Positions 14,425 through 49,266 of a stretch of 64,000 nucleotides of DNA are shown one piece after another. The DNA is from Verrucomicrobiota bacterium (GTDB lineage Bacteria; Verrucomicrobiota; Verrucomicrobiia; Opitutales; Opitutaceae): contig JAUWBD010000002.1 of assembly GCA_030605125.1 (NCBI GenBank), positions 13,179 through 77,178 of the forward strand. The letters are read 5' to 3'. The stretch's first letter is position 1; each line of letters opens with the position of its first letter. A program made the position numbers and the translations under genes. The notes beneath the pieces are model-generated. The model was not told the origin of the DNA. It was given only the letters and a program-made list of their open reading frames with translations, and ran no database searches.

Positions 14425-14437
14425 TCGAACCGTAAGA
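14425..14437. promoter_or_regulatory. Operator-like palindrome (motif A)
   Basis: TCGAAC-C-GTAAGA, 65 bp upstream of the Ogl start. Confidence 0.55.
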
Positions 14438-14448
14438 TTTCACCCACC

Positions 14449-14474
14449 TGGAGGGACGCCGTCCCCGGCGTCCG
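14449..14474 (+). repeat. REP-like hairpin with GGAG head, copy 1
   Basis: TGGAG-GGACGCCG-TCCC-CGGCGTCC-G; identical 26-mer at 20223-20248. Confidence 0.75.
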
Positions 14475-14585
14475 CGCCCCCGACGCGATCTTCCGCCTCC
14501 CCTGAGGCCATTGGCCGTAACATCGATCCCCCTCGTTCCGCGTAGCGGAACCGCACTCCCCAGCGGCGCTCATTGAGCCGCCGCA

Positions 14586-15299
14586 TTAGCGGTCAACTCC
14601 CTCCCGCACCGAGAACTCCCGCACCTCGATCCGCGACCACACGGTGCGAAACCCAAACCAGCCCTCGGTCAAGGGCTCCGGGTCCACGAAATCGAAAAAC
14701 ACCACGCCGTCCCGCGCCCACGTCGTTCGCCCGCCCTCCTCCACCGTGATCTCGATCCGGTAGGCGCGCCCCGCCTCGAGCAGAAACTCCGCGCCCGACA
14801 GATCATGCTCGGGCCGCAGCGGCCGCCCGCCCGCGCCATCGTAACGACGAAATCGCGTGGTGCTGTTCCCGTTGCCGCCGTGGCCCACGTAGTAGGTGCG
14901 CAGACCGTCATAGGTCTCGAACTTGCCCGTGCGCCCGTTCTCCTTCGCGAAAAAATCTCCCGGCGTCCTCGGGTCGGTCGCCATCCAAAAGCAGTTGAGG
15001 TCGGAGACGCGCCGCCCCTCGCCGCCCGTCACCGTAGCGATAAACTGGATACGCACCGGCGCCCGCAGCGGCTCGCGCCGCCAGACCGTGCAGCCCGCCG
15101 CGTCGTCGATCACCAGCACGCCGTCGCGCGCCGTCACCGTGCCGCCCGGCTGCTGCTCCACCACCCAGCCCTCGAGCCCACGAGCAAACCACTCCGCCGC
15201 CTCCTCCGCCGCCAACGACGCCGGCGCCGAATCCGCGGCGACCGCTCCCGCCGCGAGCCCGCATGCGGCACGCACGATCCTGGTTCCGGTTTTTTTCAT
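14586..15299 (-). CDS. ConA-like protein, DUF6250/YesU-like
   Basis: GCTVW, RVSDLNCFWMATDP, YYVGHGGNGNSTTRFRRY, GWFGFRTV; pectin-locus context. Confidence 0.65.
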   Translation of the reverse strand: MKKTGTRIVRAACGLAAGAVAADSAPASLAAEEAAEWFARGLEGWVVEQQPGGTVTARDGVLVIDDAAGCTVWRREPLRAPVRIQFIATVTGGEGRRVSDLNCFWMATDPRTPGDFFAKENGRTGKFETYDGLRTYYVGHGGNGNSTTRFRRYDGAGGRPLRPEHDLSGAEFLLEAGRAYRIEITVEEGGRTTWARDGVVFFDFVDPEPLTEGWFGFRTVWSRIEVREFSVREGVDR

Positions 15300-15345
15300 A
15301 CTGTAAACTTGGGCTTCCGTTGCGGTTGGCGCGAGGTTGTCCCGA

Positions 15346-15358
15346 CCTTACCGTCAGA
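15346..15358. promoter_or_regulatory. Operator-like palindrome (motif A)
   Basis: CCTTAC-C-GTCAGA in the divergent yesU-like/PL11 spacer; weaker copy TCATAC-T-GTAAAC at 15296-15308. Confidence 0.5.
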
Positions 15359-15384
15359 TTCGCCCCACCCTCCCCAACCACCCC

Positions 15385-23893: not shown

Positions 23894-23906
23894 TATGACA
23901 GTAAGC
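23894..23906. promoter_or_regulatory. Operator-like palindrome (motif A)
   Basis: TATGAC-A-GTAAGC upstream of PL11 paralog 2. Confidence 0.45.
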
Positions 23907-24003: not shown

Positions 24004-24016
24004 TCTTACTGTCAGC
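24004..24016. promoter_or_regulatory. Operator-like palindrome (motif A)
   Basis: TCTTAC-T-GTCAGC upstream of the 24077 gene and the PEP-CTERM gene. Confidence 0.55.
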
Positions 24017-33640: not shown

Positions 33641-33665
33641 CCGCCTTTCCCCTCGCACCCCTCCC

Positions 33666-36014
33666 ATGCGCTTTTTTGTCGTCTGCCTTCTTCTGCTCGG
33701 ATTCGCCGCCGCCGGCCAGGCGAAGCCCGGCGCCGAGCTGAGGCTCGCCCCGCTGCCCCCCGCCCCGGCCGACGCCTCGCTGCTCGCCTCCCACGGCCGG
33801 CAGGTCCTCGTCGTCGCCGGCGCGCGGGTCGCGCCGCTCGGCGCGCCCGCCTCTTCCGTCGAGTGGACCGAGGGCGCCCCGACCGTGCTCGCCCGCGCCT
33901 CCTCCGCGGAAGGCGTTTTCCTCGTCGCTCCCGATCGCGTCGTCCGCCTGTCCGCCGCGGCCAACGGCGCGCCGCCGACCGTGGCCCGCCTGCCCGATTT
34001 GCCCGGAGCGCCGCTCGCCGCGGACGCCGTCGTGGCCGCCGCCGTGCTCGGCAAGCGCCTCTACGTCGCCACCGGCTCCGGCTTCCACGGTCTCGATTTT
34101 TCCGCGGACGCGCCCGGCGCATGGGCGGCATTGCCCCCGGCCCCGTTGCCGCTCGGTCCGGGCTCCGCCCTCGTCGCGCAGCTCGACCAGCTCACGCTCT
34201 TCACGCCCTCCGGCACGCGCGCCTACCTGCCGCAGACCGGCTGGAAAAACCAGGCGCTCGCCGCGGCTCCCTTCGAGCTCGCCGCCGCGCCGGCCGCCGC
34301 GCGCTACGGCGCCGCGCACGTGTTTTTCTCCGACGCCGCCGCCACCCACGCCTACCACGTCCCGACCGATACCTGGGTCCGCCACGAGCTCGCGATCCCC
34401 GTGCCGCGATCCGCCGCGCCGCAGGGCGACGGCCTCGCGATCCTCGGCGCCGACGGCGCGCTCTCCTCGCTCGTCGCCGCGCCGCTGCCCACCGGCTACA
34501 ACTGGCTCGATCACGGCGTGGTCGCCACCTACCTGCTCGCGATGGTCGGCATGAGCCTCTGGTTCGCGCGCCGAAAGCAAAACGCGAACGACTACTTCCG
34601 CGGCGGAAACCGCATCCCGTGGTGGGTCTCGGGCATGAGCCTCTTCGCGACTTTCGCCAGCGCGATCAGCCTCATGGCCATGCCCGGCAAGGCCTTCTCC
34701 GGCGACTGGACCTACTACACCATCAGCCTTTTCGCGCTGCTCGTGCTGCCCGTCACGCTCTTCGTGCTCACGCCCTTCGTGCGGAGGCTCAACATCCCCA
34801 CGGCCAACGCCTACCTCGAGCGCCGCTTCGGCCTGCCCACCCGACTGCTCGGCAGCGTGATCGGCATCTTCACCACCAGCCTCGCGCGCCAGGGCTCCGT
34901 GCTCGTGCTACCCTCCATCGCGCTCTCCACCGTGATGGGCGTGCCGGTCGAGGCCTGCATCATCGTGATGGGCCTCGTCACCCTCGCCTACACCTTTTTC
35001 GGCGGTCTCTCCGCCGTCGTGTGGACCGACACCGTGCAAGGCTTCATCATGATCGGCGCCGTCGTCGGCTGCCTCCTGCTCGCCTGGTCGCGCCTCGACC
35101 TCGCGCCCGCCGAGGCCTGGCAGATTTTGCAACAGGGCGAGAAGCTCCGCGTCTTCGACTGGAACACCGACCTCACCTACCCGACCGCCTGGGTCTTCCT
35201 CATCACCACCGTCGTCTCCGTGCTCGGAGGCGTGGGCAACCAGGACTACATCCAGCGCGTGCAGTGCACGCCCTCGCTCCGCGACGCCCGCCTCGCCGTC
35301 GCCACGCAGCTGCTCGTCGCCGTGCCGCTCAACCTCCTCCTCTTCGGCCTCGGCACCGTGCTCTTCCTCTTCTACCAGCAAAGCCCCGCGTCGCTCAGCC
35401 CGGCGCTGAAGATCGACGGCATCTACCCCTTCTTCGTCGCGCAACAACTCCCGCCCGGCGTCTCCGGCCTGGTCGTCGCCGCGCTGCTCGCCGCCACGAT
35501 GTCCACCATCTCGAGCTGCAACTGCAGCGTCTCCGACATCGTCACCCAGGATTTCTACCGCCGCTTCAAGCCCGGCGCGCCCGACCGCTCGGTGTTGCTC
35601 TTCGGCCGCGTCGCCACGCTCGTCTCCGGCCTCGCCGGCATCGGCACCGCCCTCTGGATGGCCAACGCCACGCTCGGCTCGATGTGGGACCTCGCGATCA
35701 TGGTCACCAACCTCATCGGCAACGGCATCGTCGGCCTCTTCACGCTCGGGCTGCTCACCCGCCGCGCGCACCAGACCGGCGCGCTTGTCGGCGTCGCCGC
35801 CGGCATGGCCGTCGTCATCTGGCTGCAGAACCACAGCACGATCACCTTCTGGCTCTTCACCGCGATCGGCACCGCCGTGACCGTCGGCGTCGGCTACCTC
35901 GCCAGCCTGCTGCTGCCCGGCCGCACGCCCGCCCTCGCCGGGCTCACCTTTTACACCGTGAGGGAAAAACCGGTCCCCGCCGTCGAGGCCCCCGCCGTCA
36001 CCGTCGCGTCCTGA
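33666..36014 (+). CDS. Sodium:solute symporter with a ~270-aa N-terminal extracytoplasmic (Kelch-like) domain
   Basis: Signal peptide; DYFRGGNRIPWW, SLFATFASAIS, VVWTDTVQ, NQDYIQR, AATMSTISS; many transmembrane segments. Confidence 0.88.
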   Translation: MRFFVVCLLLLGFAAAGQAKPGAELRLAPLPPAPADASLLASHGRQVLVVAGARVAPLGAPASSVEWTEGAPTVLARASSAEGVFLVAPDRVVRLSAAANGAPPTVARLPDLPGAPLAADAVVAAAVLGKRLYVATGSGFHGLDFSADAPGAWAALPPAPLPLGPGSALVAQLDQLTLFTPSGTRAYLPQTGWKNQALAAAPFELAAAPAAARYGAAHVFFSDAAATHAYHVPTDTWVRHELAIPVPRSAAPQGDGLAILGADGALSSLVAAPLPTGYNWLDHGVVATYLLAMVGMSLWFARRKQNANDYFRGGNRIPWWVSGMSLFATFASAISLMAMPGKAFSGDWTYYTISLFALLVLPVTLFVLTPFVRRLNIPTANAYLERRFGLPTRLLGSVIGIFTTSLARQGSVLVLPSIALSTVMGVPVEACIIVMGLVTLAYTFFGGLSAVVWTDTVQGFIMIGAVVGCLLLAWSRLDLAPAEAWQILQQGEKLRVFDWNTDLTYPTAWVFLITTVVSVLGGVGNQDYIQRVQCTPSLRDARLAVATQLLVAVPLNLLLFGLGTVLFLFYQQSPASLSPALKIDGIYPFFVAQQLPPGVSGLVVAALLAATMSTISSCNCSVSDIVTQDFYRRFKPGAPDRSVLLFGRVATLVSGLAGIGTALWMANATLGSMWDLAIMVTNLIGNGIVGLFTLGLLTRRAHQTGALVGVAAGMAVVIWLQNHSTITFWLFTAIGTAVTVGVGYLASLLLPGRTPALAGLTFYTVREKPVPAVEAPAVTVAS

Positions 36015-36039
36015 TCCCCGTCCGCTCGCCTCCCGGACC

Positions 36040-37311
36040 ATGCGCCGTCTCCTCGCCCTCCTCGCCGCGCTGCCGCTCCTCGCGTGCGCCGACGCCGCGG
36101 CCGCCGTGCTGCGGTTCCATTTCGATCCCGCCACACCCGCCGAGGGCGCCACCGTGGTGTCTTCCGAAACGCTCTACTCGGCCGCGCACGGCCACGGTTT
36201 CCTGCCCGCCGCCGCGCCCGGCGGCCCGCGCTCCTTCATCGTCGATCTGCCCGAGGGCAACTACGACGTCACCCTCCGCTTCGGTGCGGCCGACCGCGCC
36301 ACCGACACCACCGTCAAGGCCGAGACGCGCCGACTCCTGCTCGAAGCGGTCCGCACCGCGCCCGGCGAATTCGTCACCCGCACCGTCACCGTCAACCTCC
36401 GCACGCCCGCGATCCCCGGCGCGCCCGGCCCGGTCGTGTTGAAGGAGCGCGAACGCGGCGCGCTGCACTGGGACGACAAACTCTCGCTCGAGTTCAACGG
36501 CCCCGCGCCCGCCGTGGTGTCGCTCGAGATCCGCCGCAACGACTCCGCCCTCACCGTTTTCCTCGCCGGCGACTCCACCGTCACCGACCAGCCCGGCGAG
36601 CCCTGGGCCGCCTGGGGCCAGATGCTCCCGCGCTTCTTCGGCCCCGGCGTCGCCGTCGCCAACCACGCCGAGTCCGGCCTCTCGCTCGCCAGCTTCCGCG
36701 GCTCGCGCCGCCTCGACAAAATCCTCTCCGCGCTCCGGCCCGGCGATTACGTCTTCATCCAGTTCGGCCACAACGACCAGAAGGAGAAGGGCGAGGGCGT
36801 GGGCGCCTTCACCAGCTACGCGCAGTCGCTCCGCGACTACGTGGCCGCCATCCGCGCGCGCGACGGACGCCCCGTCCTCGTCACCTCCATGTATCGACGC
36901 CGCTTCGACGAACGCGGGCTCTTCGACACGCTCGGCGATTTCCCGCCCGCCGTCCGCGCCGTCGCGCGGGAAACCGGCGCGCCGCTCATCGATCTGCACG
37001 CCATGAGCGCCACGCTGTTCTCCGCGCTCGGCCCCGAGCGCTCCAAGCTCGCCTTTGTGCATTTTCCCGCCGGCGCCTACGGCTCCGACAAGGCGGTCAA
37101 GGACGACACCCACTTCAGCCCCTATGGCGCCTACGAGCTCGCGCGCTGCATCGTCGAGGGCATCCGCGCCTCCGTGCCCGAGCTCGCCGCGCGCCTCGCG
37201 CCCGAGCTCACCCCCTACGATCCTGCGCGGCCCGGCGATCCCGCGGCCTTCTCCGTCCCCGCCAGCCCGCCCGCCGAGGCCGCGCGCATCCCCGACGGCG
37301 ACGGCCGCTAG
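36040..37311 (+). CDS. Rhamnogalacturonan acetylesterase (CE12, SGNH) with N-terminal beta-sandwich
   Basis: AGDSTV, WGQML, NHAESG, IQFGHNDQK, DDTHF. Confidence 0.9.
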   Translation: MRRLLALLAALPLLACADAAAAVLRFHFDPATPAEGATVVSSETLYSAAHGHGFLPAAAPGGPRSFIVDLPEGNYDVTLRFGAADRATDTTVKAETRRLLLEAVRTAPGEFVTRTVTVNLRTPAIPGAPGPVVLKERERGALHWDDKLSLEFNGPAPAVVSLEIRRNDSALTVFLAGDSTVTDQPGEPWAAWGQMLPRFFGPGVAVANHAESGLSLASFRGSRRLDKILSALRPGDYVFIQFGHNDQKEKGEGVGAFTSYAQSLRDYVAAIRARDGRPVLVTSMYRRRFDERGLFDTLGDFPPAVRAVARETGAPLIDLHAMSATLFSALGPERSKLAFVHFPAGAYGSDKAVKDDTHFSPYGAYELARCIVEGIRASVPELAARLAPELTPYDPARPGDPAAFSVPASPPAEAARIPDGDGR

Positions 37312-37317
37312 CCAGCC

Positions 37318-38319
37318 ATGCGCCGCCTCCTGCTCGCCCTCGGTCTCCTCGGGTCCGCGCTCGCCGCGCCCGACCCGTCCGCCGCGTCCACCGGGCTCGG
37401 CTACCTCCTCGAGCACCAGACGCCCCTCGGCGGTTGGCCGAAGAACACCGACTTCTCGCTTCCTCCCGCGCGCCCGCCGCGCGACAGCGACGCCACCATC
37501 GACAACGGCGCCACCACCACGCCGCTGCGGCGCCTCGCCGCCGCCCTCGCCGCGGAGCCCCGGCCCGCGCCGGAGCACCTCGCCGCCTTCACGCGTGGCG
37601 TCTCCTACCTTCTCGCCGCCCAATACCCCGGAGGCGGTTGGCCCCAGTTTTATCCCCTGCGCGGGGGCTACCACGACCACGTCACGTTCAACGACGACGC
37701 GATGGTCAACGTGCTGGCCTTGCTGCGCGACGTGGCCGATGCCGCCCCGCCCTTCACCTTCGTCGATCCCGAGCTCCGCGCCCGCGCCGCCGCCGCCGTG
37801 GAGCGCGGGGTGGACTGCATTCTCCGCGCCCAGGTCCGGCGAGACGGCGTGCTCACCGTCTGGTGCGCGCAACACGACCCGCGCACGCTCGCGCCCGCTT
37901 GGGCCCGTAACTTCGAGCCGCCGTCGCTCTCCGGCCACGAAAGCGTCGGCATCGTGCGTTTCCTCATGTCGGTGAAAAATCCCTCGCCCGAGGTCGTCGC
38001 CGCGATCGAAGGCGCGGTCGCCTGGTTCCGGAAAACCCGCATCGACGGGCTCCGCCACGAGCGGTTCACCAATGAGCACGGCGAGTCCGACCGACGCGTC
38101 GTGCCCGCCGCCGGGACCCCGCCGCTCTGGGCCCGCTTCCATGATCTCGAAACCGACCGACCGCTCTTCGTGGGCCGCGACCGCGTGATCCGCCACGCGC
38201 TCGCCGAGATCGAGCGCGAGCGACGCGTCGGCTACGCCTACTACACCACCGCGCCGGCCGCGCTGCTGGAGCGCGATTACCCGCGCTGGCGCGCCCGCCT
38301 CGCCGCGCCGTCGCGTTGA
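37318..38319 (+). CDS. Pectate lyase PL10 (PelA-like)
   Basis: GGWPKN, TIDNGAT, QYPGGGWPQFYP, TFNDDAM, WCAQHD, ARNFEPPS, ERRVGY. Confidence 0.92.
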   Translation: MRRLLLALGLLGSALAAPDPSAASTGLGYLLEHQTPLGGWPKNTDFSLPPARPPRDSDATIDNGATTTPLRRLAAALAAEPRPAPEHLAAFTRGVSYLLAAQYPGGGWPQFYPLRGGYHDHVTFNDDAMVNVLALLRDVADAAPPFTFVDPELRARAAAAVERGVDCILRAQVRRDGVLTVWCAQHDPRTLAPAWARNFEPPSLSGHESVGIVRFLMSVKNPSPEVVAAIEGAVAWFRKTRIDGLRHERFTNEHGESDRRVVPAAGTPPLWARFHDLETDRPLFVGRDRVIRHALAEIERERRVGYAYYTTAPAALLERDYPRWRARLAAPSR

Positions 38320-38334
38320 TCCGCCCGCTCCGCC

Positions 38335-40074
38335 ATGACGCCCGCTCCGCTCCGGCTCCCCGGCACGCTCCCGCTCTACCTCTGGTCGTGCCGTCGCGCC
38401 TTCACGCCCGGCCTCTGCCTCGCTGCGCTGCGCATCCTCTGCATCGCGCCGCTGCCGGTCGTGTTTCAACGCATCCTCGACGTCCACCTGCCCGCCCGGG
38501 ACCAGGCGGGCATCCTCGCGCTCTGCGCGCTCACGCTCGGACTCCTCGTTGCGCACCAGTTCTTCAGCGTGCGCGGCGCCTCCCTCCTCGGCGCCGCCGT
38601 CGCCCGCTCCGTCCTCGATCTGCGCGGGCGCATTTTCCACAAGGTCCAGTTCCTCAGCCTCGCCTACCTCGACCGCCAGCAGACCGGCCGCCTCCTCTCC
38701 AAATACTCCTTCGACACGCAGAAGATCGAGGGGGTGATGATGCCAATCCTCAACAGCTTCCTCCCCGACACGCTCTACAGTCTGCTCACCTTCGCCGTGC
38801 TGCTGAAGCTCAACGCGCGGCTCGCCCTCGTCGTGCTGCTCATGCTGCCGGTCTTCGCCATCATGCGCGCCCGCTACTTCCGGCGTTTCCGCGAGAAAAA
38901 CGAGGCCCACCGCGTGGCGCAGGAGAAACTCGCCGGCGCGGCCAACGAGTTGTTCACCGCGCTCAAGCTCGTGCGCGTTTACGGCGAGGAGTCGCGCGCC
39001 GCCGGCCGCCTCGCCGCCGAGGACGACGCCGTGGCGCGCTCCCGCGTGGAGCTCATCGCCGTCTCCTCCGGCTTCGGCGCCTTCAGCTTCGCCGCCATCA
39101 AGCTCCTCTCGCTCGTCGTCATCGCCGGCGGCGCGCTGCTCGCCATCCACGGACAGGTGAGCGCCGGCACCGTGGTAGCCTTCGTCGCCGGCGTGCCCGT
39201 GCTCGTCGGGCCCGTGCAGATGTTCGCCCAGGTGAGCGAGCAGCTCTTCGTCGGGCAGGCCGCCTACCGCAGCGTCAACGAGCTGCTCGACGCGCCCTAC
39301 GTCGAGGAGTGGCGCGGCTCCGCCCGCCCCGAGCCGCTGCGCGGCGGCATCAGCTTCGACCACGTCCGCTTCCATTACGACGGCGACGAGCGCGCCGCCC
39401 TGCACGATCTCACGCTCGAGCTGCGGCCCGGCGAAAAGGTCGCCTTCGTCGGCCCCTCGGGCGCGGGCAAAAGCACCGTGGTCAACCTCCTCCTCGGCCT
39501 CCACCGTCCGCAGTCAGGGGAGATCCGGATCGACGGCGTCCCGCAGGCCGCGCTCGACCTGCGCTGGTTCCGCCGCCGCGTCGCGCTCGTGATGCAGGAA
39601 AACATCCTCCTTTCCGGCACCATCGCCGACAACCTCCGCTTCTCCCGCCCCGAGGCCACCGACGCCGAGCTCGAGCATGCCGCCCGCCTCGCCCACGCCG
39701 ACGAGTTTATCCGCCGCCTGCCGCAGGGCTACCAGACCCGCGTCGGCGAGCGCGGGGCCACGCTCTCCGGCGGCCAGCGGCAACGCCTCGCCATCGCCCG
39801 CGCCCTGCTGCGCGATCCCGTCATCCTCGTCCTCGACGAGCCCACCTCCGCGCTCGACTACGAGAGCGAGCGGCTCATCCAGCGCTCGCTCGACGACATC
39901 GCCCGCGGCCGCACCGTCATCACCATCGCGCACCGCCTGAGCACGATCCGGCACGCCGACCGCATCGTCGTGCTCGAGGAGGGCCGCGTCGTCGAGCAAG
40001 GCACCTACGAGGCGCTCTCCGCGCCCGGCGGCTACTTCGCGCGCAAGCAGTTCACCGCCGTCCCGATCGCCTGA
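38335..40074 (+). CDS. ABC transporter, fused transmembrane + ATPase (exporter fold)
   Basis: Walker A GPSGAGKST, signature LSGGQ, Walker B LVLDEPTS, IAHRLS. Confidence 0.92.
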   Translation: MTPAPLRLPGTLPLYLWSCRRAFTPGLCLAALRILCIAPLPVVFQRILDVHLPARDQAGILALCALTLGLLVAHQFFSVRGASLLGAAVARSVLDLRGRIFHKVQFLSLAYLDRQQTGRLLSKYSFDTQKIEGVMMPILNSFLPDTLYSLLTFAVLLKLNARLALVVLLMLPVFAIMRARYFRRFREKNEAHRVAQEKLAGAANELFTALKLVRVYGEESRAAGRLAAEDDAVARSRVELIAVSSGFGAFSFAAIKLLSLVVIAGGALLAIHGQVSAGTVVAFVAGVPVLVGPVQMFAQVSEQLFVGQAAYRSVNELLDAPYVEEWRGSARPEPLRGGISFDHVRFHYDGDERAALHDLTLELRPGEKVAFVGPSGAGKSTVVNLLLGLHRPQSGEIRIDGVPQAALDLRWFRRRVALVMQENILLSGTIADNLRFSRPEATDAELEHAARLAHADEFIRRLPQGYQTRVGERGATLSGGQRQRLAIARALLRDPVILVLDEPTSALDYESERLIQRSLDDIARGRTVITIAHRLSTIRHADRIVVLEEGRVVEQGTYEALSAPGGYFARKQFTAVPIA

Positions 40075-40091
40075 TTTTTTCCCGCCTCGCC

Positions 40092-42455
40092 ATGCCGTTT
40101 CTCGCGATCCCCGCTCCGTCGTCCGTCCAGCCCGAGGAGGTGTTTTCACTCGGCGCCTCGCGCAGCCCTTCCGGGGCCGAGATCCGCGTGGACCGGATGT
40201 CACTCCGCCTCGACGGCGCGCGTTGGATGCCCGTCATGGGCGAGCTGCACTACGCTCGCGTGCCCGCCGCCGACTGGCGCGAGGAGTTGCTCAAGATGAG
40301 AGCCGGCGGCATCGACTGCGTCGCCTCCTACGTGTTCTGGATCCATCACGAGGAGAGCGAGGGCGAGTTCGGCTGGAGCGGCGACCGTGGGCTGCGTCGC
40401 TTCGTCGCCACCGCCGCCGAGTGCGGGCTGCGCGTCGTCGTCCGTCTCGGCCCCTGGTGCCACGGCGAGGTGCGCAACGGCGGCCTGCCCGACTGGATCG
40501 TCTCCCGCCACGGCGCGCGCGCCCGCACCGACGACCCCGCATACCTGGCCTCCGTCCGCGCGCTGTTCGCGCAAATCTTCGCGCAGCTCGACGGCCTGCT
40601 CTGGAAACAGGGCGGCCCGATCGTCGGCTTCCAGATCGAGAACGAATACTGGGGACCCGCCGAGCACCTCCTCACGCTCAAGCGCCTCGCGCGCAAGGCC
40701 GGTCTCGACGCCCCGCTCTACACCCGCACCGGCTGGCCCGACCTCACCACGCCCATGCCCTTCGGCGAGCTCCTCCCGCTCTACGGTGCCTACCCCGAGG
40801 GCTTCTGGGATCGCGACCTCGCGCCGATGCCGGGCTTCTACCCCGCCTCGTTTCGCTTCACCCCGCTGCGCACCGACGCCGGCATCGCCACCGATCTGCT
40901 CGGCCAACGCGAGGCAGCCGACACGCCTGGCACCGAACGCTACCCCTTCCTCACCTGCGAGCTCGGAGGCGGCATGATGAGCAGCTACCACCGCCGCATC
41001 CGCATCGATCCGCGCGACATCGAAAGCCTCGTCCACGTCAAGCTCGGCTCCGGCGGCAACCTCCCCGGCTACTACATGTATCACGGCGGCGTGAACCCCG
41101 AGGGCCGCACCACCCTCCAGGAGTCGCAGGCCACCGGCTACTGGAACGACCTCCCGGTAAAGAACTACGACTTCCAGGCTCCCCTCGGCGCCGCCGGGCA
41201 GCTCCGCCCCCACTACCACCGCCTGCGACGCCTGCATCTTTTTATCCGCGACCACGGCTCGCTCCTCGCCGGCCTGCCCGCCCATTTTCCCGCCGACCGA
41301 AAAACCTCCCCCGACGACCTCGCCACGCTCCGCTGGTCCGTCCGCTCCGACGGCCGCTCCGGCTTCGTATTCATAAATAACTACGAGCGCCTCCGCCCGC
41401 TCCCCGCCAAGCCCGGCGTCCGCTTCGCTTTCGACCTGCCCGACGGCCGTCGCGTCGAGTTTCCCTCCGTCGTGGTCGATATCCCGGCCGACTCGACCCT
41501 CGTCTGGCCCTTCGGGCTCCCGCTCGCCCCCGGCGTCCACCTCGACCACGCCACCGCCCGCCTCCTCTGCCAGATCGACGAGGGCGCGATCCGCACCGTC
41601 TTCTTCGCGGCCACGCCCGGCGTCCCCGCCGAGTTCGCCTTCGACGGCGCCGCGCCCGAGATCCTCGCCCCCGGCCGGCGCGTGGCGCGCGTCGTCCCCG
41701 GGGCCGATGGCGCCACCGTCCGCATCGTCCTGCTCGACGACGCCGACAGCCTCGCGCTCTGGAAAGCCGACTGGCTCGGCCGTCCCCGCGTCTTCCTCAG
41801 CCGCGCCGCCCTCGTCTTCGACGGCGACACGCTTCGAGTCTCCGCCGAAAACCCCGCCGACCTCGCCGTCTCCGTCTTCCCCGCGCTCGCTCCGTCCGAG
41901 TCCCTCTTCACGCCCCTGCCACTTCACCTCGCGCCCCACCCCTCGGGCATCAACCATTGGTCATGTCAGACCAGCGCCTCGAACGCGCTAGAGGACCTTG
42001 GTCATTGGTCATTAGTTATCTCCCCGCTTCGTCCCGCCGGTCCCGCTCGCGAGATTCCGCTCGGCCACACCCAGCCCGCCGTCGCCGTCGCTCCCACCGA
42101 CGCCGACTTCGCGCACGGCGCCGCCTGGCGCGTCGCGCTCCCCGCCGATCTCGACCCCGCGCGCACCCCGCTCCTCCGCCTCCGCTACGTCGGCGACGTC
42201 GCCCGCATCCTCCTCGGCGGCCGCCTCGTCCTCGACGATTTCTACCACGGCGACGTCCTCGAGCTCGACCTCGCCCGCCACGCCTCCGCCCTCGCCACCG
42301 GCGCCGATCTGGTCGTCGAGATCCTCCCTCTCCGCGCCGACGCGCCCATCCTGCTCCCCGCGGGCCTCCGCCCGCCCGCCGACTCCGCGCCCCTCGCGCA
42401 CCTCCACTCCGTCGAGCTCGTGCCGCGTTTCTCCGCGATCGCCCGGCTTTGCTAG
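40092..42455 (+). CDS. Beta-galactosidase GH35-like
   Basis: MGELHYAR, YVFWIHHE, RLGPWCHGE, FQIENEY, CELGGG, YYMYHGG, YDFQAP. Confidence 0.88.
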   Translation: MPFLAIPAPSSVQPEEVFSLGASRSPSGAEIRVDRMSLRLDGARWMPVMGELHYARVPAADWREELLKMRAGGIDCVASYVFWIHHEESEGEFGWSGDRGLRRFVATAAECGLRVVVRLGPWCHGEVRNGGLPDWIVSRHGARARTDDPAYLASVRALFAQIFAQLDGLLWKQGGPIVGFQIENEYWGPAEHLLTLKRLARKAGLDAPLYTRTGWPDLTTPMPFGELLPLYGAYPEGFWDRDLAPMPGFYPASFRFTPLRTDAGIATDLLGQREAADTPGTERYPFLTCELGGGMMSSYHRRIRIDPRDIESLVHVKLGSGGNLPGYYMYHGGVNPEGRTTLQESQATGYWNDLPVKNYDFQAPLGAAGQLRPHYHRLRRLHLFIRDHGSLLAGLPAHFPADRKTSPDDLATLRWSVRSDGRSGFVFINNYERLRPLPAKPGVRFAFDLPDGRRVEFPSVVVDIPADSTLVWPFGLPLAPGVHLDHATARLLCQIDEGAIRTVFFAATPGVPAEFAFDGAAPEILAPGRRVARVVPGADGATVRIVLLDDADSLALWKADWLGRPRVFLSRAALVFDGDTLRVSAENPADLAVSVFPALAPSESLFTPLPLHLAPHPSGINHWSCQTSASNALEDLGHWSLVISPLRPAGPAREIPLGHTQPAVAVAPTDADFAHGAAWRVALPADLDPARTPLLRLRYVGDVARILLGGRLVLDDFYHGDVLELDLARHASALATGADLVVEILPLRADAPILLPAGLRPPADSAPLAHLHSVELVPRFSAIARLC
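41955..42019 (+). repeat. Intragenic repeat element, copy 1
   Basis: 33-bp core CATGTCAGACCAGCGCCTCGAACGCGCTAGAGG (41962-41994) flanked by TTGGTCA heptamers, inside the GH35 ORF. Confidence 0.8.
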
Positions 42456-42463
42456 TCCGCGCC

Positions 42464-43423
42464 ATGTCTCCCCGCCCCCTCCTCGCGTTGCTCCTCACCC
42501 TGTCCTCCGCCTTCGCCTCGGCGTCGCCGGCGCCCATCCGCCGCGACCTGGGCATCCACGATCCCTCCACCCTGGTCCGCGCCGAGGGCTACTGGTGGGT
42601 GTTTGGCACCGGTCACCAGATCCTCTCCGCCCGCTCCAGCGACCTCCTCCGCTGGGAAAAATTTCCGCGCGTGCTCCCCTCGCCTCCCGCCTGGGCCCGC
42701 GAGGTTGCGCCCGGCAACGACAAGGCCCACTACTGGGCGCCCGACCTGATCCGCGTCGGCGAACGCTGGCTGCTCTACTACTCGGTCTCCGAGTTTGGCA
42801 AAAACAGCTCCGCCATCGCGCTCGCCTCCTCGCCCGTCCTCAGCCCCTCCGACCCCGCCCGCCGCTGGACCGACCACGGCATCGTCCTCCGCTCCCGCCC
42901 CGGCGACGATTTCAACGCCATCGATCCCTCGCTCCTCCTCGACCGCGACGGCCGCCTCTGGATGGCCTTCGGCTCCTTCTGGGCCGGCCTCTTCCTCGTC
43001 GAGCTCGATCCCGCCACCGGCCTGCGCCTCGATCCCGCCGCGCCGCCGCTCCAGCTCGCCTGGTCCGAGGAGATCGAGGCCCCGACGCTGTATCAACGCG
43101 GCGACTACACCTACCTCTTCATCAACGAGGGCCGTTGCTGCCGCGGCAAAGACAGCACCTACCGCGTTCTCGTCGGCCGCTCCCGCTCCGTCGCCGGTCC
43201 CTACCTCGACCGCGAGGGCCGCGATCTGCGCGATCGCGGCGGCAGCCCCCTCCTCGCCACCGAGGGCGACTTCATCGGTCCCGGCCACGCCACCGTCGTC
43301 GAGGACGGGCCGCACCAGTGGCTCGCGTTTCACTTCTACGACGGCGCCCGCAACGGCGCCCCCACCCTCGGCCTCCGCCCGCTCTTCTGGAGCGCCGACG
43401 GCTGGCCCACCCTTTCCGAATAA
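42464..43423 (+). CDS. GH43 endo-1,5-alpha-L-arabinanase-like, secreted
   Basis: IHDPS, YWAPD, FNAIDP, FGSFWAG, IEAP, GPGH. Confidence 0.88.
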   Translation: MSPRPLLALLLTLSSAFASASPAPIRRDLGIHDPSTLVRAEGYWWVFGTGHQILSARSSDLLRWEKFPRVLPSPPAWAREVAPGNDKAHYWAPDLIRVGERWLLYYSVSEFGKNSSAIALASSPVLSPSDPARRWTDHGIVLRSRPGDDFNAIDPSLLLDRDGRLWMAFGSFWAGLFLVELDPATGLRLDPAAPPLQLAWSEEIEAPTLYQRGDYTYLFINEGRCCRGKDSTYRVLVGRSRSVAGPYLDREGRDLRDRGGSPLLATEGDFIGPGHATVVEDGPHQWLAFHFYDGARNGAPTLGLRPLFWSADGWPTLSE

Positions 43424-43448
43424 CCCAAAAATCTTCCGCCCACCCCCC

Positions 43449-45494
43449 ATGCGCTCCCCTCACTGGTCATTGGACATGTCAAACCAGCGCCTCGAACGCG
43501 CTAGAGGTCATTGGTCATTCCGCGGCCTCCTCGCCGCCACCGCCCTCCTCCTCGCCCTTCCGCCCACCACGGCCGCCGCCACCACCCCGCAGGTCGAGCG
43601 TCTCGGCCGCGGCCTCGTCGCCGTGGCGCAGCCCGACGGCCGCGTCTTCCTCTCCTGGCGCCTGCTCGCCGACGATCCCGCCGACATCGCCTTCAACGTC
43701 TATCGCACCACCACCCGCCCCCCCGGCGCCTCCGCGATCGACTTCGGTCAATACCGCTCCGTGCCCGACCTGCCCGAGGGCACGGTGAAGCTCAACGCCG
43801 CGCCCGTCCGCGACGTCACCTGGTTTATCGACCCCGCGCCCGCGCTCCAAAACGAGACCGCCTACGTCGTCCGCCCCGTCCTCGCCGGCGTCGAGCAGGA
43901 CGCCTCACGCCCCGTCACCCTCGCCGCCGGCTCGCCGCCGCGCGCCTACCACCGCCTCCCGCTCCAAAACCCGCCCGGCTACGAACCGCTCGAAGCCTCC
44001 GTCGGCGACCTCGACGGCGATGGCGAATACGAGCTGATCCTCATGCAGGCCGGCGCCTATCGCGACAACTCCCGCTCCGGCCCCACCGATCCCGCCATTC
44101 TCCAGGCCTACCGGCTCGACGGCACGCTGCTCTGGCAGATCAACCTCGGCAAAAATATCCGCGCCGGCGCGCACTACACCCAGTTCATCGTTTACGACCT
44201 CGACGGCGACGGCCGCGCCGAGCTCGCCTGCAAGACCGCTGACGGCACCATCGACGGCCTCGGCAAAGTGATCGGCGATCCCGCCGCCCATCACGTCAAC
44301 GCCGCCGGCCACGTCCTCGCCGGCCCCGAGTTTCTCACCGTCTTCGACGGCCTCACCGGCGCCGCGCTCGACACCGTCCCCTACGAGCCCGCCCGCCACC
44401 CGACCAACCCGCTCAACCCCACGCGCGAGGAGCTGCGCGCCGTCTGGGGCGACGGCAACGGCAACCGCTCCGACCGCTACCTCGCCGGCGTCGCCTACCT
44501 CGACGGCTCGCGCCCCAGCCTGCTCATGGCCCGCGGCTACTACACCCGCTCCACCATCGCCGCCTGGGATTTCCGCGACGGGCGGCTCGTCAAACGCTGG
44601 CTCTTCGATTCCGACGCCGGTCCCGAGTCCAACCGCGCCTACCGCGGCCAGGGCAACCACTCGCTCTCCGTCGCCGACGTGGATGGCGACGGGCGCGACG
44701 AGATCATCTACGGCGCCGCCGTCATCGACGACGACGGCACCGGCCTCCACTCCACCGGCTGGGGCCACGGCGACGCCCTCCACGTCTCCGACCTGAACTG
44801 GGACAACCCCGGGCAGGAGATCCTCACCCTCCAGGAGCGCTTCTCCACCGAGGGCATCTCGCTGCGCGACGCGCGCGGCGGGCGTCCCATCTTCACCGTG
44901 CCCTCGCTCAAGGCCGACGAGGACGGCGGCGACAAAGGCGAAGGCCCCGGCCGCGGCGTCGCCTTCAACATCGATCCTCGCCACCCGGGCTCCGAGGTCT
45001 GGGGCATCGGCGCCGGCATCACCGGACTCTACGCCGCCGACGGCACCCGCCTCGGCGACCGCCCCGCCGACATGCCCGCCAACTTCGCCGTGTGGTGGGA
45101 TGGCGACCTGCTCCGCGAACTGCTCGACCAAAACTTCGTCGCCAAGTGGAACTGGGAAACCGGCGCCGTGGACCGCCTGCTCACCGCCCACGAGTGCATC
45201 TCCAGCAACGGCACCAAGGCCACGCCCGCGCTCAGCGCCGACCTCTGGGGCGATTGGCGCGAGGAGATCATCTGGCGCACGCGCGACGGCTCCGCGCTCC
45301 ACATCTACACCAGCACCATCCCCACCCCGCACCGCATGGTCACGCTGATGCAGGACCCGCAATACCGCTGCGCGATCGCCTGGCAAAACGTCGCCTACAA
45401 CCAGCCCCCGCACCCCGGCTTCGCGCTCGATCCCGGCCTGCCGCTCCCCGTGCGCCGCGAGGTCCGCGTCGGCCCCGCGGGCGGCCGTGATTGA
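43449..45494 (+). CDS. Rhamnogalacturonan lyase PL11, paralog 3
   Basis: ERLGRGLVA, GDLDGDG, NIRAGAHYTQF, GHGDALH, NGTKATP, WQNVAYNQPPH; start 43449 or 43476. Confidence 0.92.
   Translation: MRSPHWSLDMSNQRLERARGHWSFRGLLAATALLLALPPTTAAATTPQVERLGRGLVAVAQPDGRVFLSWRLLADDPADIAFNVYRTTTRPPGASAIDFGQYRSVPDLPEGTVKLNAAPVRDVTWFIDPAPALQNETAYVVRPVLAGVEQDASRPVTLAAGSPPRAYHRLPLQNPPGYEPLEASVGDLDGDGEYELILMQAGAYRDNSRSGPTDPAILQAYRLDGTLLWQINLGKNIRAGAHYTQFIVYDLDGDGRAELACKTADGTIDGLGKVIGDPAAHHVNAAGHVLAGPEFLTVFDGLTGAALDTVPYEPARHPTNPLNPTREELRAVWGDGNGNRSDRYLAGVAYLDGSRPSLLMARGYYTRSTIAAWDFRDGRLVKRWLFDSDAGPESNRAYRGQGNHSLSVADVDGDGRDEIIYGAAVIDDDGTGLHSTGWGHGDALHVSDLNWDNPGQEILTLQERFSTEGISLRDARGGRPIFTVPSLKADEDGGDKGEGPGRGVAFNIDPRHPGSEVWGIGAGITGLYAADGTRLGDRPADMPANFAVWWDGDLLRELLDQNFVAKWNWETGAVDRLLTAHECISSNGTKATPALSADLWGDWREEIIWRTRDGSALHIYTSTIPTPHRMVTLMQDPQYRCAIAWQNVAYNQPPHPGFALDPGLPLPVRREVRVGPAGGRD
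43461..43519 (+). repeat. Intragenic repeat element, copy 2
   Basis: Core CATGTCAAACCAGCGCCTCGAACGCGCTAGAGG (43475-43507), 32/33 identical to copy 1, with TGGTCAT heptamers. Confidence 0.8.
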
Positions 45495-45513: not shown

Positions 45514-45526
45514 TCTGACTGTTCGA
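45514..45526. promoter_or_regulatory. Operator-like palindrome (motif A)
   Basis: TCTGAC-T-GTTCGA upstream of the PL4 gene. Confidence 0.55.
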
Positions 45527-45595: not shown

Positions 45596-48500
45596 ATGCC
45601 CCGTTTTTTGCGCGTCCTCGCCCTTCTCTGCGCCCTGTCCGTCTTCATCGACGACGCACGGCTCCACGCCTTCGGCCTCAGCTCCACCTCGACCTACTTC
45701 CAGGTCGATACTGGCGCGGGCCTCGTCTTTCGCGTCCGCCGCACCGACAACGGCTCCAACACCCAGTCCGCCGGCGACATCATGAGCCTCGTGTGGAACG
45801 GCGTGGAGTATCAAAACCAGTCGCGCGGCTCCCAGGTCACCTCCGGCTTCGACTACCTCTACACCGGCGTCTCCGCCGTCAGCGTCTCCGCCGCCACGGT
45901 GGGCAACGACTTCATCAAGGTCACCGTCAGCGCCGGCGACCTCACCCACTACTACATGGCGCGCCGCGGCCTGCCCCACATCTACATGGGCACGCACTTC
46001 AGCACCCAGCCCGACATCCACGGGCTCGTGCGCTACATCTTTCGCATCCCGCAACACCTCCTGCCCAACGGCCCCGCGCCGTCCGACATCCGCCAGACCA
46101 CCAGCACCATCGAATCCGGCGACATCTTCGCGCTCCCCAACGGCCAGTCGCGCTCCAAGCACTACTCGAACATGCGGCTCAAGGACTGGGCGCACATCGG
46201 CGCCACCGGGCCCAACGTCGGCCTCTGGATGCTGCGCGACGATCACGAGGGCGGCTCCGGCGGGCCCTTCTACCGCTCGCTCCTCAACCAGTGCGGCGAC
46301 GACCAGGAGATCACCTACATCGTCAACTACGGCCAGGCCCAGACCGAGGCCTTCCGTCCCGGCATCCTCAACACCTACACCACCGTCTTCACCACCGGCG
46401 GCCCGCCCCCCGCCACGGTGGACACCTCCTGGTTCGCGCAGATGGGCCTGCTCGGCTTTCTCCCGCCCTCCGGCCGCGGCGGCGTCCGCGGCACCGCCAT
46501 CGCCAACCGCGACACCGCCTTCGACTACACCGTCGGTCTCGCCAACTCCACCGCCCAATACTGGGCCGACGCCGACCCCGTCACCGGCGCCTTCCTCCGC
46601 GAGGATGTCCGCCCCGGCGACTACACGCTCACCGTCTATAAAAACGAACTCGCGGTCCACACCGCCTCCGTCTCCGTCGCCGCCGGCGTCATCACCGAGT
46701 TGCCCGCCATCACACTCGCCGCCGACCCCGCCCGCACCGCGCCGCTCTGGCGCGTCGGCGCCTGGGACGGCACTCCGCTCGAGCTCTCGAACGGGCCGCT
46801 CGTCACCACGATGCACCCCTCCGATCCGCGTCTCGCCACCTGGACGCCCGGCACCTTCGTCGTCGGCCAGTCCGATCCCGCCACCGCCTTCCCCTGCTAC
46901 CAGTGGACCGCGGTCAACGGCTCGCAAACCATCCAGTTCCAGCTCGCCGCCGGCCAGCAGGTCGCCTCCACCGTGCGCGTCGGTATCACCGTCGCCTACG
47001 CCAACGCCCGCCCCCGCATCACGGTCAACAACTGGACCTCCTCCATCCCCGCCATCTCCACCCAGCCCGGCACGCGCACGCTCACCACCGGCAGCTACCG
47101 CGGCAACAACACCACCTACACCTTCAGCGTGCCCGCCAGCGCCCTCGTCGTCGGCACCAACACGCTCACGCTCAGCCCCGTCAGCGGCTCCGGCGGCACC
47201 GGTTTCCTCAGCGCCGGCTACAGCCTCGACTGCGTAGACTTTTTCCAAGGCGCCGCGACCACCCGCGAGCTGCCCGCCGCGGTCTCCGGCCTCGCCGTCG
47301 TGCGGCCGCCCTCCGTCCGCCGCGCCGACCTGTCGTGGAGCGTCGTGGCCGGCGCCGCCGGCTATCGTATCACCCGCGCCACTACGCCCTCCGGTCCCTG
47401 GACCGTCCTCGCCGCCAACCACGCCGCCACCACCTACACCGACGCCGCCGTGGCCGACGCCTCCGTCTTCCACTACCGCGTCGCCGCCAACAACAGCACC
47501 GGCTCCGGCCCCTTCGCCACCGCCAGCATCGCCCTCGACATCCCGCCCCGCCCCGCCGCCGCCCTCGTCTGGACCGCCGCCGAGTCCGCGCTCTGGGACG
47601 GCGCCGCGCTCAACTGGCGCGAGCAGGCGGGCGCCGCGCCCGACTTCTTCCTCGATGGCGACCAAGTCCGTTTCGACGACAGCGCCCCCGCCACCTCCGT
47701 CACCCTCGTCGGCACGCTTCGGCCCGCCGCCACCGTCGTGGACACCGCCGCCGCCTACGCCTTCTCCGGCGCCGGCGCGCTCTCCGGCTCCGGCACGCTG
47801 CAAAAATCCGGCGCCGGCACGCTCACGCTCAACAACGTCAACAGCCTCGCCGGCGCCACCACCGTCTCAGCCGGCACCCTCGCCCTCGGCGGCGGCGCGG
47901 CCCTCGGCGCGAGCGAGGTCACGCTCCTCTCCGGCGCGGCCTTCCGCCTCGCCGGCGCGGGCACCACCTTCGTCGGCAGCCCGCTTCGCCTCCCCGCCGG
48001 CGCCAGCGCCACGCTCTCCTCCGCCGCGCTCGGCAACGGCTACGGCGGCGCCGTCGCGGGCCCGGCCGGCTCCACCCTCACGCTCTCCGGCCCGGTCAGC
48101 TTCAACGTCTCCGGCTCCGCCCAGCTCGCCGCCTTCGCCGGCGTGCTCGAGATTCCCGCCGGCTCGCAACTGCGTTTCTCCTCCACCTCGGGAGCCAACG
48201 GCAACGGCGGCGCCAACACCCATTTCGTCGTCCACGGCCTGCTCAACACCCGCAACGCCTCCGGCGCGGGCGGCGTCGTCCTCGGCGCGCTCTCCGGCTC
48301 GGGCCGCGTCGAGGGCCAGACCAACACCACCGCCGGCACCGTCACCTACCTCGTCGGCGGCAAGGGCCTCGACACCACCTTCTCCGGCGTCATCGCCAAC
48401 GGGGCCAACGGCGCCGCCGCCCTCACCAAGCTCGGCTCCGGCGCGCTCACGCTCACCGGCGCCCACACCTACACCGGCGCCACCACCGTCAACGCCGGCT

Positions 48501-49231
48501 CGCTCGTCCTCGTCGGCTCGCTCGGCTCCGGCCCCGTGTCCGTCGCCGCCGGCGCGGCCTTCGGCGGCGGAGGCGGCCTCGGCGGCAACCTCACGCTCGC
48601 CTCCGGCTCCACGCTCTTGCTCGGCGTCGCCCCCGGCTCCACCCGCGGCCCCGCGGTCGGCGGCGCCGCCACGCTCAACGGCACGATCACCGTTTCCCCG
48701 CGTCTTCTCGGCGCCTCGCTCGCCCCGGGCGTGTATCCGATTCTCACCTACAACGGGGCGCTGGCCGGCTCGCCCACCCTGCTCTGGTCCGATCCCACCG
48801 GCTCGGGCCTGGTCGCGAGCTTCGATCACGCACAACCCGGCGAGCTCCGCGTCGTCCTCCGCACCCCGTTGCAAGTCTGGCGGCAGACCTGGTTCGACAC
48901 CGCCGACCCCACCGGCCCCGCCGCCGACACCGCCGACCCCGACGGCGACGGCCTCCCCAACCTCCTCGAATACGCGCTCGGCACCGATCCCCTCGCCGCA
49001 GACGCGCCTCATCTGATTTCCCTCACTCCCTCGTCCCTCCATTCCCTCTCCTTAACCTTCTTCCGCGCCCGCGCCGAGCTCACCTATCGGGTCGAGGCCT
49101 CCTCGGACCTCGTCGTCTGGACCGTCCTTTCCACCAACCCCGGAGTCGTCGGCGACGAGGTCACCGTCACCGACACGCAAGCCCTGTCCTCCTCCCCCCG
49201 CCGCTTCCTCCGGCTCCACGTCTCCCACTAA
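45596..49231 (+). CDS. PL4 rhamnogalacturonan lyase + Fn3 + autotransporter-associated beta-strand repeats + conserved C-terminal domain
   Basis: GDIMSL, HYYMARRGLPHIYM, RSKHYSN, LWRVGAWDGTP, GSYRGNN, YSLDCVD; QKSGAGTLTL and TKLGSGALTLTGAHTYTGATT repeats; DPDGDGLPNLLEYALG...RRFLRLHVSH. Confidence 0.85.
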   Translation: MPRFLRVLALLCALSVFIDDARLHAFGLSSTSTYFQVDTGAGLVFRVRRTDNGSNTQSAGDIMSLVWNGVEYQNQSRGSQVTSGFDYLYTGVSAVSVSAATVGNDFIKVTVSAGDLTHYYMARRGLPHIYMGTHFSTQPDIHGLVRYIFRIPQHLLPNGPAPSDIRQTTSTIESGDIFALPNGQSRSKHYSNMRLKDWAHIGATGPNVGLWMLRDDHEGGSGGPFYRSLLNQCGDDQEITYIVNYGQAQTEAFRPGILNTYTTVFTTGGPPPATVDTSWFAQMGLLGFLPPSGRGGVRGTAIANRDTAFDYTVGLANSTAQYWADADPVTGAFLREDVRPGDYTLTVYKNELAVHTASVSVAAGVITELPAITLAADPARTAPLWRVGAWDGTPLELSNGPLVTTMHPSDPRLATWTPGTFVVGQSDPATAFPCYQWTAVNGSQTIQFQLAAGQQVASTVRVGITVAYANARPRITVNNWTSSIPAISTQPGTRTLTTGSYRGNNTTYTFSVPASALVVGTNTLTLSPVSGSGGTGFLSAGYSLDCVDFFQGAATTRELPAAVSGLAVVRPPSVRRADLSWSVVAGAAGYRITRATTPSGPWTVLAANHAATTYTDAAVADASVFHYRVAANNSTGSGPFATASIALDIPPRPAAALVWTAAESALWDGAALNWREQAGAAPDFFLDGDQVRFDDSAPATSVTLVGTLRPAATVVDTAAAYAFSGAGALSGSGTLQKSGAGTLTLNNVNSLAGATTVSAGTLALGGGAALGASEVTLLSGAAFRLAGAGTTFVGSPLRLPAGASATLSSAALGNGYGGAVAGPAGSTLTLSGPVSFNVSGSAQLAAFAGVLEIPAGSQLRFSSTSGANGNGGANTHFVVHGLLNTRNASGAGGVVLGALSGSGRVEGQTNTTAGTVTYLVGGKGLDTTFSGVIANGANGAAALTKLGSGALTLTGAHTYTGATTVNAGSLVLVGSLGSGPVSVAAGAAFGGGGGLGGNLTLASGSTLLLGVAPGSTRGPAVGGAATLNGTITVSPRLLGASLAPGVYPILTYNGALAGSPTLLWSDPTGSGLVASFDHAQPGELRVVLRTPLQVWRQTWFDTADPTGPAADTADPDGDGLPNLLEYALGTDPLAADAPHLISLTPSSLHSLSLTFFRARAELTYRVEASSDLVVWTVLSTNPGVVGDEVTVTDTQALSSSPRRFLRLHVSH

Positions 49232-49253
49232 CCGGCGCTTTCCGCGCGCCGTG

Positions 49254-49266
49254 TCTTACTGTTCGA
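49254..49266. promoter_or_regulatory. Operator-like palindrome (motif A)
   Basis: TCTTAC-T-GTTCGA upstream of the CE12 pair. Confidence 0.55.

Follow-up and report, generated by a model that had tools for sequence, protein, structure and literature searches.

A 13-bp odd palindrome as the predicted operator of a LacI-family regulator in a rhamnogalacturonan locus of Opitutaceae

This study concerns a 64,000-nucleotide stretch of DNA (hereafter the window, numbered from its first letter and corresponding to C124:13179-77178) from a metagenome-assembled genome (MAG) of the family Opitutaceae, phylum Verrucomicrobiota. At 13.1-51.3 kb the window carries a locus for the utilisation of rhamnogalacturonan-I (RG-I), as judged from gene calls and Pfam matches, and it is in the spacers of this locus that a short palindromic motif recurs next to the gene of a LacI-family transcription factor. 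Members of the Opitutaceae are often encountered as pectin degraders in soils, freshwater and rhizospheres, and to our knowledge almost no transcription-factor regulons have been mapped in Verrucomicrobiota. The draft genome comprises 4.88 Mb in 271 contigs, with a GC content of about 69% (69-72% is also quoted). Because raw lists of open reading frames (ORFs) are useless at such a GC content, genes were called with a codon log-odds model, trained on the long ORFs of the genome with a high GC content at third codon positions (GC3), and the products were then scanned against Pfam. A simple GC3 filter had left large gaps and was replaced by this model. The resulting gene map consists of home-made calls.

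The lyases of the locus comprise three PL11 enzymes, one of them fused to PATR repeats, a PL4-PATR protein, a PcRGLX-type exo-lyase, a PL22-like oligogalacturonate lyase and a pectic acid lyase. They are accompanied by three GDSL esterases, by GH42, GH35 and GH43 enzymes, by RhaM, an SSF symporter and a GFO/IDH/MocA oxidoreductase, and by one AraC-family and one LacI-family protein; PEP-CTERM, N-methyl/DUF1559 and PATR domains are present among the products of the window in the Pfam scan and point to the PVC superphylum. A candidate operon runs divergently from the LacI gene. It opens with the GFO/IDH/MocA gene, followed by those for the RhaM mutarotase, the PcRGLX-type exo-rhamnogalacturonan lyase (PL26), the SSF symporter and a GDSL esterase, and its remainder includes genes for the pectic acid lyase (Pfam Pec_lyase), an ABC exporter-type protein, GH35, GH43 and PL11. 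Its intergenic gaps are mostly below 50 bp, the largest being 78 bp (with the longest start; the scoring model puts this start later) and 46 bp. The features on which the following relies are these:

28119..29147, minus strand: gene of the LacI-family transcription factor (342 aa), the proposed binder; ATG at 29147, Pfam LacI helix-turn-helix (HTH) domain, AlphaFold2 model
29256..45494, plus strand: candidate operon divergent from the LacI gene; tightly packed genes, assigned with Pfam
29162..29174, no strand assigned: perfect palindrome TCTTACTGTAAGA, common to two divergent units, with a distance of 14 nt to the ATG of the LacI gene and of 81 nt to that of the GFO operon
14425..14437, minus strand: site TCTTACGGTTCGA, 64 nt before the ATG (14360) of the PL22-like oligogalacturonate lyase gene 13137-14360
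15346..15358, plus strand: site CCTTACCGTCAGA, 26 nt before the ATG of PL11 lyase a (15385-17280)
23894..23906, minus strand: site GCTTACTGTCATA, 64 nt before the ATG (23829) of the PL11-PATR gene 20260-23829
24004..24016, plus strand: site TCTTACTGTCAGC, 36 nt before a small ORF (24053-24463), which is followed by a PATR/PEP-CTERM protein (24460-26253)
45514..45526, plus strand: site TCTGACTGTTCGA, 69 nt before the ATG (45596) of the PL4-PATR rhamnogalacturonan lyase gene 45596-49231
49254..49266, plus strand: site TCTTACTGTTCGA, 52 nt before a GDSL esterase gene (49319-50227), which is followed by a second GDSL gene (50375-51250)
15296..15308, minus strand: weak site GTTTACAGTATGA, overlapping the start codon of a DUF6250 gene (14586-15299)
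26315-27247: AraC-family protein gene, inside the locus

The original prediction had listed seven 13-mers in non-coding spacers, and all of them are found at exactly the coordinates claimed. On the gene map with corrected starts, all seven are intergenic and stand 14-81 nt before a start codon. The perfect palindrome, correctly said to lie 15 bp upstream of the LacI gene, is separated by 14 nt from the ATG at 29147, a start that is fixed by the N-terminal MPAPSLRQLAQKLDLSHTTVSEALRG; it is the sole exact match to TCTKACNGTMAGA in the genome. The additional weaker copy over a start codon is likewise present at 15296, with a low score of 10.3 bits in a position weight matrix (PWM). Its counterpart in genome G014, CCTTACAGTATGA, is also kept over the DUF6250 start codon, where the start codon itself is part of the conservation. 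The same genome has an identical copy of the TCTTACGGTTCGA site at the same place after the DUF6250 gene, and identical 13-mers occur in G022 and G017. The claim that the motif is absent before the apiose and arabinan genes also stands, in that there is no intergenic site within window positions 1-13000. Some of the sites are paired: those in the divergent spacer between the PL11-PATR gene and the small ORF (23894-24016) lie 110 bp apart, centre to centre, and those at 15296 and 15346 are 50 bp apart. An RNA hairpin or a mobile repeat was considered and rejected, given that the stem would have 6 bp with a 1-nt loop and that the flanks are not common to the sites.

The degenerate pattern proposed originally is, with up to two mismatches, not enriched within the window (21 matches versus 16.2 expected). 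We dropped it as too loose and turned to counts of half-sites, to a pattern derived independently and to PWMs with one site left out at a time. In the whole 4.88-Mb genome there are 11 copies of TCTTACNGT, five of which fall within a 36-kb stretch that makes up 0.8% of it, and four of the six genomic copies of CTTACTGT lie in the locus stretch. The pattern TCTKACNGTMAGA, which was derived from other genomes to avoid circularity, has 65 matches in the genome with up to two mismatches, eight of them in the locus (binomial P 4.8e-8); when only intergenic DNA is considered, the locus accounts for six of 32 matches (P 5.8e-10). A genome-wide scan with a PWM of the seven sites, a check suggested together with the original prediction, yielded one sole further position within their score range (at least 17.6 bits). 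In the leave-one-out PWMs, every held-out site comes between the 2nd and the 41st rank among about 9.8 million positions, the last of these ranks belonging to the weakest of the seven, CCTTACCGTCAGA at 15346. The top off-locus PWM matches that we inspected (on C231, C95, C244, C202, C191 and C198) precede genes unrelated to pectin use, such as gltB-like and pheT-like genes, with gene identities read from N-terminal sequences; we dismissed these matches as chance.

The motif can also be traced in related genomes. Orthologues of the LacI-family protein share 79-87% identity in 16 genomes of the same genus, 63-64% in two Lacunisphaera MAGs and 53% in G028, which belongs to another family and whose fetched locus has a GC content of 53%. 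Twenty orthologous LacI upstream regions all keep TCT(T/G)ACAGT(A/C)AGA (TCTKACAGTMAGA) while their flanks diverge, and they do so across genome GC contents from 70% down to 53%. The palindrome stands 18-27 nt before the ATG of these orthologues, and at -91 in G028. In five genomes it reads TCTGACAGTCAGA, where a T-to-G change in one half-site is mirrored by an A-to-C change in the other, and such a symmetric change is what a dimer on a palindrome predicts. We also scanned 41 genomes for the palindrome with an exact pattern, for which a reversed-pattern control gave 0-2 matches per genome. All 18 genomes with the orthologue contain one or two copies of it, compared with one of the 23 genomes that lack the orthologue (Fisher P 9e-11). 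This single match, in the distant genome G039, is a tandem repeat beside a run of N (L050, G039:C141:5940-5980), in which the repeats TCGGACTGTCAGAC / TCTGACGGTCCGA mimic the motif; a similar repeat array is found at G039:C209:3289-3333, and the repeats in this genome are unrelated to rhamnogalacturonan genes. Outside the genus, G025 and G029 possess PL11 genes and lack both the regulator and the motif.

Likewise, the sites are conserved before orthologous rhamnogalacturonan genes in the relatives, in agreement with the proposed rhamnogalacturonan regulon. Since the target sites in the relatives were found by pattern search, their core bases are biased by selection, which does not apply to their position and orientation relative to genes. 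The order LacI, operator, GFO, RhaM, PcRGLX (with or without SSF) and GDSL is syntenic in six relatives of the same genus, and LacI, operator, GFO and RhaM are adjacent in G028, too. Sites precede PL11 genes in G023, G012, G024, G015 and G021 (PL11c in the last), and the succession of site, small ORF and PL11 gene recurs in G023, in G015 (C52), in G012 and in G024, as it is seen at window position 24004. Further sites are found before a GH43 gene (G003), before GDSL2 orthologues (G008 and G009, orthologous to the window site at 49254) and before PL22-like lyases (G022, where a GDSL gene follows, and, by site identity, G017 and G024). In Lacunisphaera, they precede a TonB-dependent receptor gene and the GFO gene. 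Matches to the asymmetric form of the pattern outside the genus (G026, G027, G030 and G039) have no rhamnogalacturonan genes nearby.

The candidate binder has the make-up of a complete LacI-family protein. Its LacI-type HTH domain (PF00356) is recognized at residues 10-50 with 35.9 bits against a 27-bit cut-off, and phmmer matches it to the DNA-binding domains of CcpA, CytR and CelR. An AlphaFold2 model built from 25 homologues has a predicted local distance difference test score (pLDDT) of 88.3. Its best matches in the PDB, obtained with Foldseek, are all full-length LacI-family repressors (CelR, CcpA, LacI, PurR and RbsR; E 8e-17 to 1e-14), and the alignments to CelR, CcpA, LacI and PurR span about 355-364 columns. 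According to this model, the C-terminal part adopts the two-lobe fold of type I periplasmic binding proteins and the protein as a whole the full LacI fold, including a hinge helix at residues 51-62. The recognition helix LSHTTVSEALRGSPRV is identical in all orthologues of the same genus, and those of Lacunisphaera and G028 differ from it by one to two conservative changes. The hinge NPLAGALMSEMRR is near-invariant, and Leu56 (LacI numbering by our own alignment to Escherichia coli LacI), the hinge leucine with which the family reads the centre of the operator, is invariant in the 25 aligned homologues. The invariance of helix and hinge matches that of the operator. In the alignment to E. coli LacI, His17, Thr18 and Glu22 of the recognition helix correspond to Tyr17, Gln18 and Arg22 of that protein. 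No helix change tracks the T4/A10 and G4/C10 variants of the operator; the recognition helix is identical in both groups, so that position 4 tolerates T or G. A curiosity among the orthologues is that of G017 (L002 / L023, G017:C150:2399-3424), which contains one in-frame TGA while its operator is intact; this TGA could be a sequencing error, a recent pseudogene or a case of read-through.

This LacI protein is one of many in its genome, which encodes about 57 LacI-family paralogues in 4.9 Mb, most of them with an S-x-T-V-S-x-A-L-R recognition helix. Upstream of their genes, palindromes with an AC-N-GT centre are about 4-fold enriched (six versus about 1.4 expected). A perfect one, TGGGACAGTCCCA, stands before C107:35133, and near-perfect ones stand before C115:1210 and C238:26544. 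One paralogue, 48-50% identical to the rhamnogalacturonan LacI protein (MATIRSLAAQLGLSRATVSEALRGVPRV), is absent from the window genome, where the next best match is 34% identical, and is found at G022:C6:35613-36617 and at 10 further loci (L124-L132, L135). In at least 10 relatives, its gene is preceded by a conserved odd palindrome of its own, TTCAGAC-A-GTC(C/T)GA, 3-4 nt before the ATG, and its recognition helix has RA where the rhamnogalacturonan LacI has HT. Some 21 nt upstream of the paralogue's palindrome, there is a conserved TTGAC(G).

The surroundings of the sites contain some candidate promoter elements. The spacer between the LacI and GFO genes (window 29175-29215), like its counterparts in L001-L017, holds a second conserved non-coding block, (G)ATAATCCGCTTGTCC, which reads GTGAATCGGCTTGAGC in the window; the block is located about 20 nt before the operator in the direction of the LacI gene and is then followed by GCGACGCACCGC. 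The block ATAATCCGCTTGTCC probably contains promoter elements. A sigma-54 reading of it was rejected by eye, since the distance between GG and GC is unsuitable and the GG lacks conservation. The related paralogues L119 and L122 have GATAGCnnTTGTCC just before their start. In addition, ATAAT-like boxes touch two of the sites (45509-45514 and 23890-23895); at the former, GATAAT lies directly upstream of TCTGACTGTTCGA.

In a survey of 1303 LacI-family regulators, 1251 were assigned even palindromes, 1173 of which have a central CG (90% of the 1303), whereas odd palindromes, known for instance from LacR, GalR and EbgR, account for 4%; autoregulation applies to 72% of the regulators, and for most sites the distance to the start codon downstream is 30-140 nt (PMC4052901). 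The family-typical even, CG-centred operator is not what we find here: the operator is palindromic but odd, the even form being a typical and not an obligatory trait. The original prediction had pointed out this difference between the AC-N-GT centre and the usual CG centre, and it is borne out, even if such a centre is not unprecedented in view of the 4% (PMC4052901). It had also called the motif undescribed; this is consistent with the literature searched, in which we found no paper on a LacI regulon of Verrucomicrobia or on this motif.

Compared with local sugar repressors of the LacI/GalR type, such as E. coli LacI, GalR and PurR, Bacillus CcpA or CelR (PDB 5ysz), the protein shares the HTH domain, the hinge helix and the two-lobe core, and the system shares a palindromic operator, putative autoregulation, the divergent arrangement of regulator and operon, and sites near start codons. 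It differs from them in its 13-bp odd AC-N-GT operator (as opposed to 16-22 bp, even and CG-centred), in an effector domain too diverged for Pfam, in the recognition-helix residues named above and in its membership of a LacI expansion in Verrucomicrobia that reaches about 57 paralogues in a genome. LacR, GalR and EbgR share the odd half-site spacing with a single-base-pair centre (PMC4052901), but their motifs, with 17-21 nt, belong to other orthologous groups and phyla. Functional parallels are RhiR (Rhizobiales and Erwinia; rhi locus), RhaR (Actinomycetales) and RhmR (Chloroflexus), which are predicted LacI-type regulators of rhamnose and rhamnogalacturonide genes and, like the protein described here, predicted local regulators of the uptake and breakdown of rhamnose-containing pectin fragments (PMC3870299). 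Compared by description only, their operators are 20-bp palindromes with four other consensus sequences, from other phyla (PMC3870299). A further difference lies in the proposed target enzymes of the window locus, which are secreted lyases (PL11, PL4 and PL26) anchored by PATR/PEP-CTERM. In Bacteroides, the polysaccharide utilisation loci for RG-I are governed by hybrid two-component regulators. The rhamnogalacturonan locus of Bacillus subtilis is controlled by RhgR (YesS), an AraC-family protein (PMC3870299). These regulators have the same task, switching on the genes for RG-I degradation, but they are activators, come from other protein families and use other DNA motifs.

The sites exist, are specific to the locus, are conserved across genera and co-occur with the regulator. 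Judging from the sequence evidence, it is quite likely that the 13-bp odd palindrome TCTKAC-N-GTMAGA (minimally TCnnAC-N-GTnnGA) is the operator of the LacI-family protein encoded at 28119-29147, which would act as a local, autoregulated repressor of rhamnogalacturonan use. Locus specificity, conservation before all LacI orthologues, half-site covariation and co-occurrence across 41 genomes all support the operator and its autoregulation as originally suggested. We infer its role as the binder and, from the known behaviour of the LacI family, also its action as a repressor and not an activator as well as the nature of its effector. Under this hypothesis, a LacI dimer would occupy the promoter region of its own gene along with six or more further promoters in the RG-I locus, at operators placed at or just downstream of the promoters, and would most likely repress them until a rhamnogalacturonan breakdown product reaches the cell. 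Candidates for this signal are L-rhamnose or an unsaturated galacturonyl-rhamnose oligomer.

Several observations weigh against this hypothesis. The motif has only 13 bp, where operators of the LacI family usually have 16-22 bp, and the sugar-binding domain of the protein stays below the Pfam cut-off (Peripla_BP_1, 16.2 bits versus 22.2). A scan of positions 14300-30000 for sigma-70-like promoters detected none. Within the genus, regulator, motif and PL11 genes are all present or all absent together, so that their co-occurrence there cannot separate the regulator from its targets. Lastly, the target sites are asymmetric: at about nine independent promoters, including those of relatives, the TCTKAC half is always distal to the gene and the GTYCGA half proximal to it, which a plain homodimer operator does not predict.

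One improbable alternative is that the motif is real but read by another regulator, for instance the AraC-family protein encoded at 26315-27247 or a factor encoded elsewhere. The AraC gene does lie inside the locus, in G022 and G024 some 7 kb separate its orthologue from a site that stands ahead of a PL11 gene, and co-occurrence within the genus is of no help in separating one locus-encoded factor from another. However, only seven of 17 motif-carrying relatives have the AraC orthologue, whereas the perfect palindrome always abuts the LacI gene, Lacunisphaera and G028 included; moreover, AraC-family proteins usually read direct or long asymmetric repeats and not 13-bp palindromes. It is slightly less probable still that the element serves mainly RNA polymerase or an alternative sigma factor as a promoter element and is no repressor site. 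The fixed orientation of the half-sites would follow naturally from such a role, and two sites are touched by the ATAAT-like boxes while no canonical promoter is otherwise detected. Yet the autoregulatory copy is a perfect palindrome with symmetric variants, the signature of a dimeric binder, the distance between site and start codon varies from 14 to 81 nt, no ECF (extracytoplasmic function) sigma factor is found among the Pfam-scanned genes, and a close paralogue has a palindrome of the same architecture before its own gene.

This paralogue also leads to an explanation of the asymmetry to which we give about the same low credence as to a promoter element, namely that the target sites are hybrid operators of two paralogous LacI proteins, acting as competing homodimers or as a heterodimer, the second of which has been lost in the window genome. 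Given the paralogue's own half-site type, some target sites indeed look like hybrids, with TCTGAC-T-GTCCGA, for example, joining one half-site of each type; furthermore, the paralogue adjoins PL22-like and GDSL target genes in G022 and lies within a few kb of target sites in G024 and G009. The window genome, however, keeps asymmetric sites without having the paralogue, and the proximal half in the window is mostly TCGAAC and no match to TCRGAC. Finally, the recurrence might be accidental or merely reflect the higher A+T content of spacers in a genome of 69-72% GC, as the lacking enrichment of the loose pattern could suggest. This is refuted by the test within intergenic DNA (P ~6e-10), by conservation across genera together with covariation, and by the few matches of the reversed control, and we regard it as next to impossible.

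A broader proposition goes beyond the single regulon, and we advance it only tentatively, considering it rather unlikely as a whole. It holds that a clade-wide shift took place, in which the LacI expansion of Opitutaceae (about 57 paralogues per genome) came to use short odd TCnnAC-N-GTnnGA operators. Specificity would reside in half-site positions 3-4 and in helix residues 17-18, with HT proposed to pair with TCT(T/G)AC and RA with TC(A/G)GAC, and target promoters with mixed half-sites in a constant orientation would allow combinatorial or heterodimeric control. Two orthologous groups display this odd architecture.

Conceptually, the proposed operator of the rhamnogalacturonan LacI protein is ordinary, being the expected type of control for such a sugar locus. 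Nevertheless, it gives an experimentally tractable pair of regulator and operator with a defined predicted regulon, which encompasses PL11, PL4, PL26 and PL22-like lyases, GDSL acetylesterases, GH35, GH42 and GH43 enzymes, a sodium:solute symporter and, in Lacunisphaera, a TonB-dependent receptor. With the help of the motif, rhamnogalacturonan loci of related MAGs can be annotated, the regulator-operator pair could find use as a switch that responds to pectin, and the LacI family gains a rare odd-palindrome case from an unstudied phylum.

Two minor observations concern genes next to the sites. Between operator site and PL11 or PATR gene, there is recurrently a small ORF (136-163 aa) whose product has a signal peptide and matches no Pfam family (window 24053-24463; G023:C1, about 2563100-2563570; G015:C52:8076-8567), which may encode a conserved accessory protein of the secreted lyases. 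In G015, the gene of a 1098-aa DUF4450 protein near C11:61276-64623 (L080:10276-13623), some 20 kb downstream of the LacI-GFO operon, has a weaker site, TCATACTGTCCGA, in front of it and may be a further member of the regulon.

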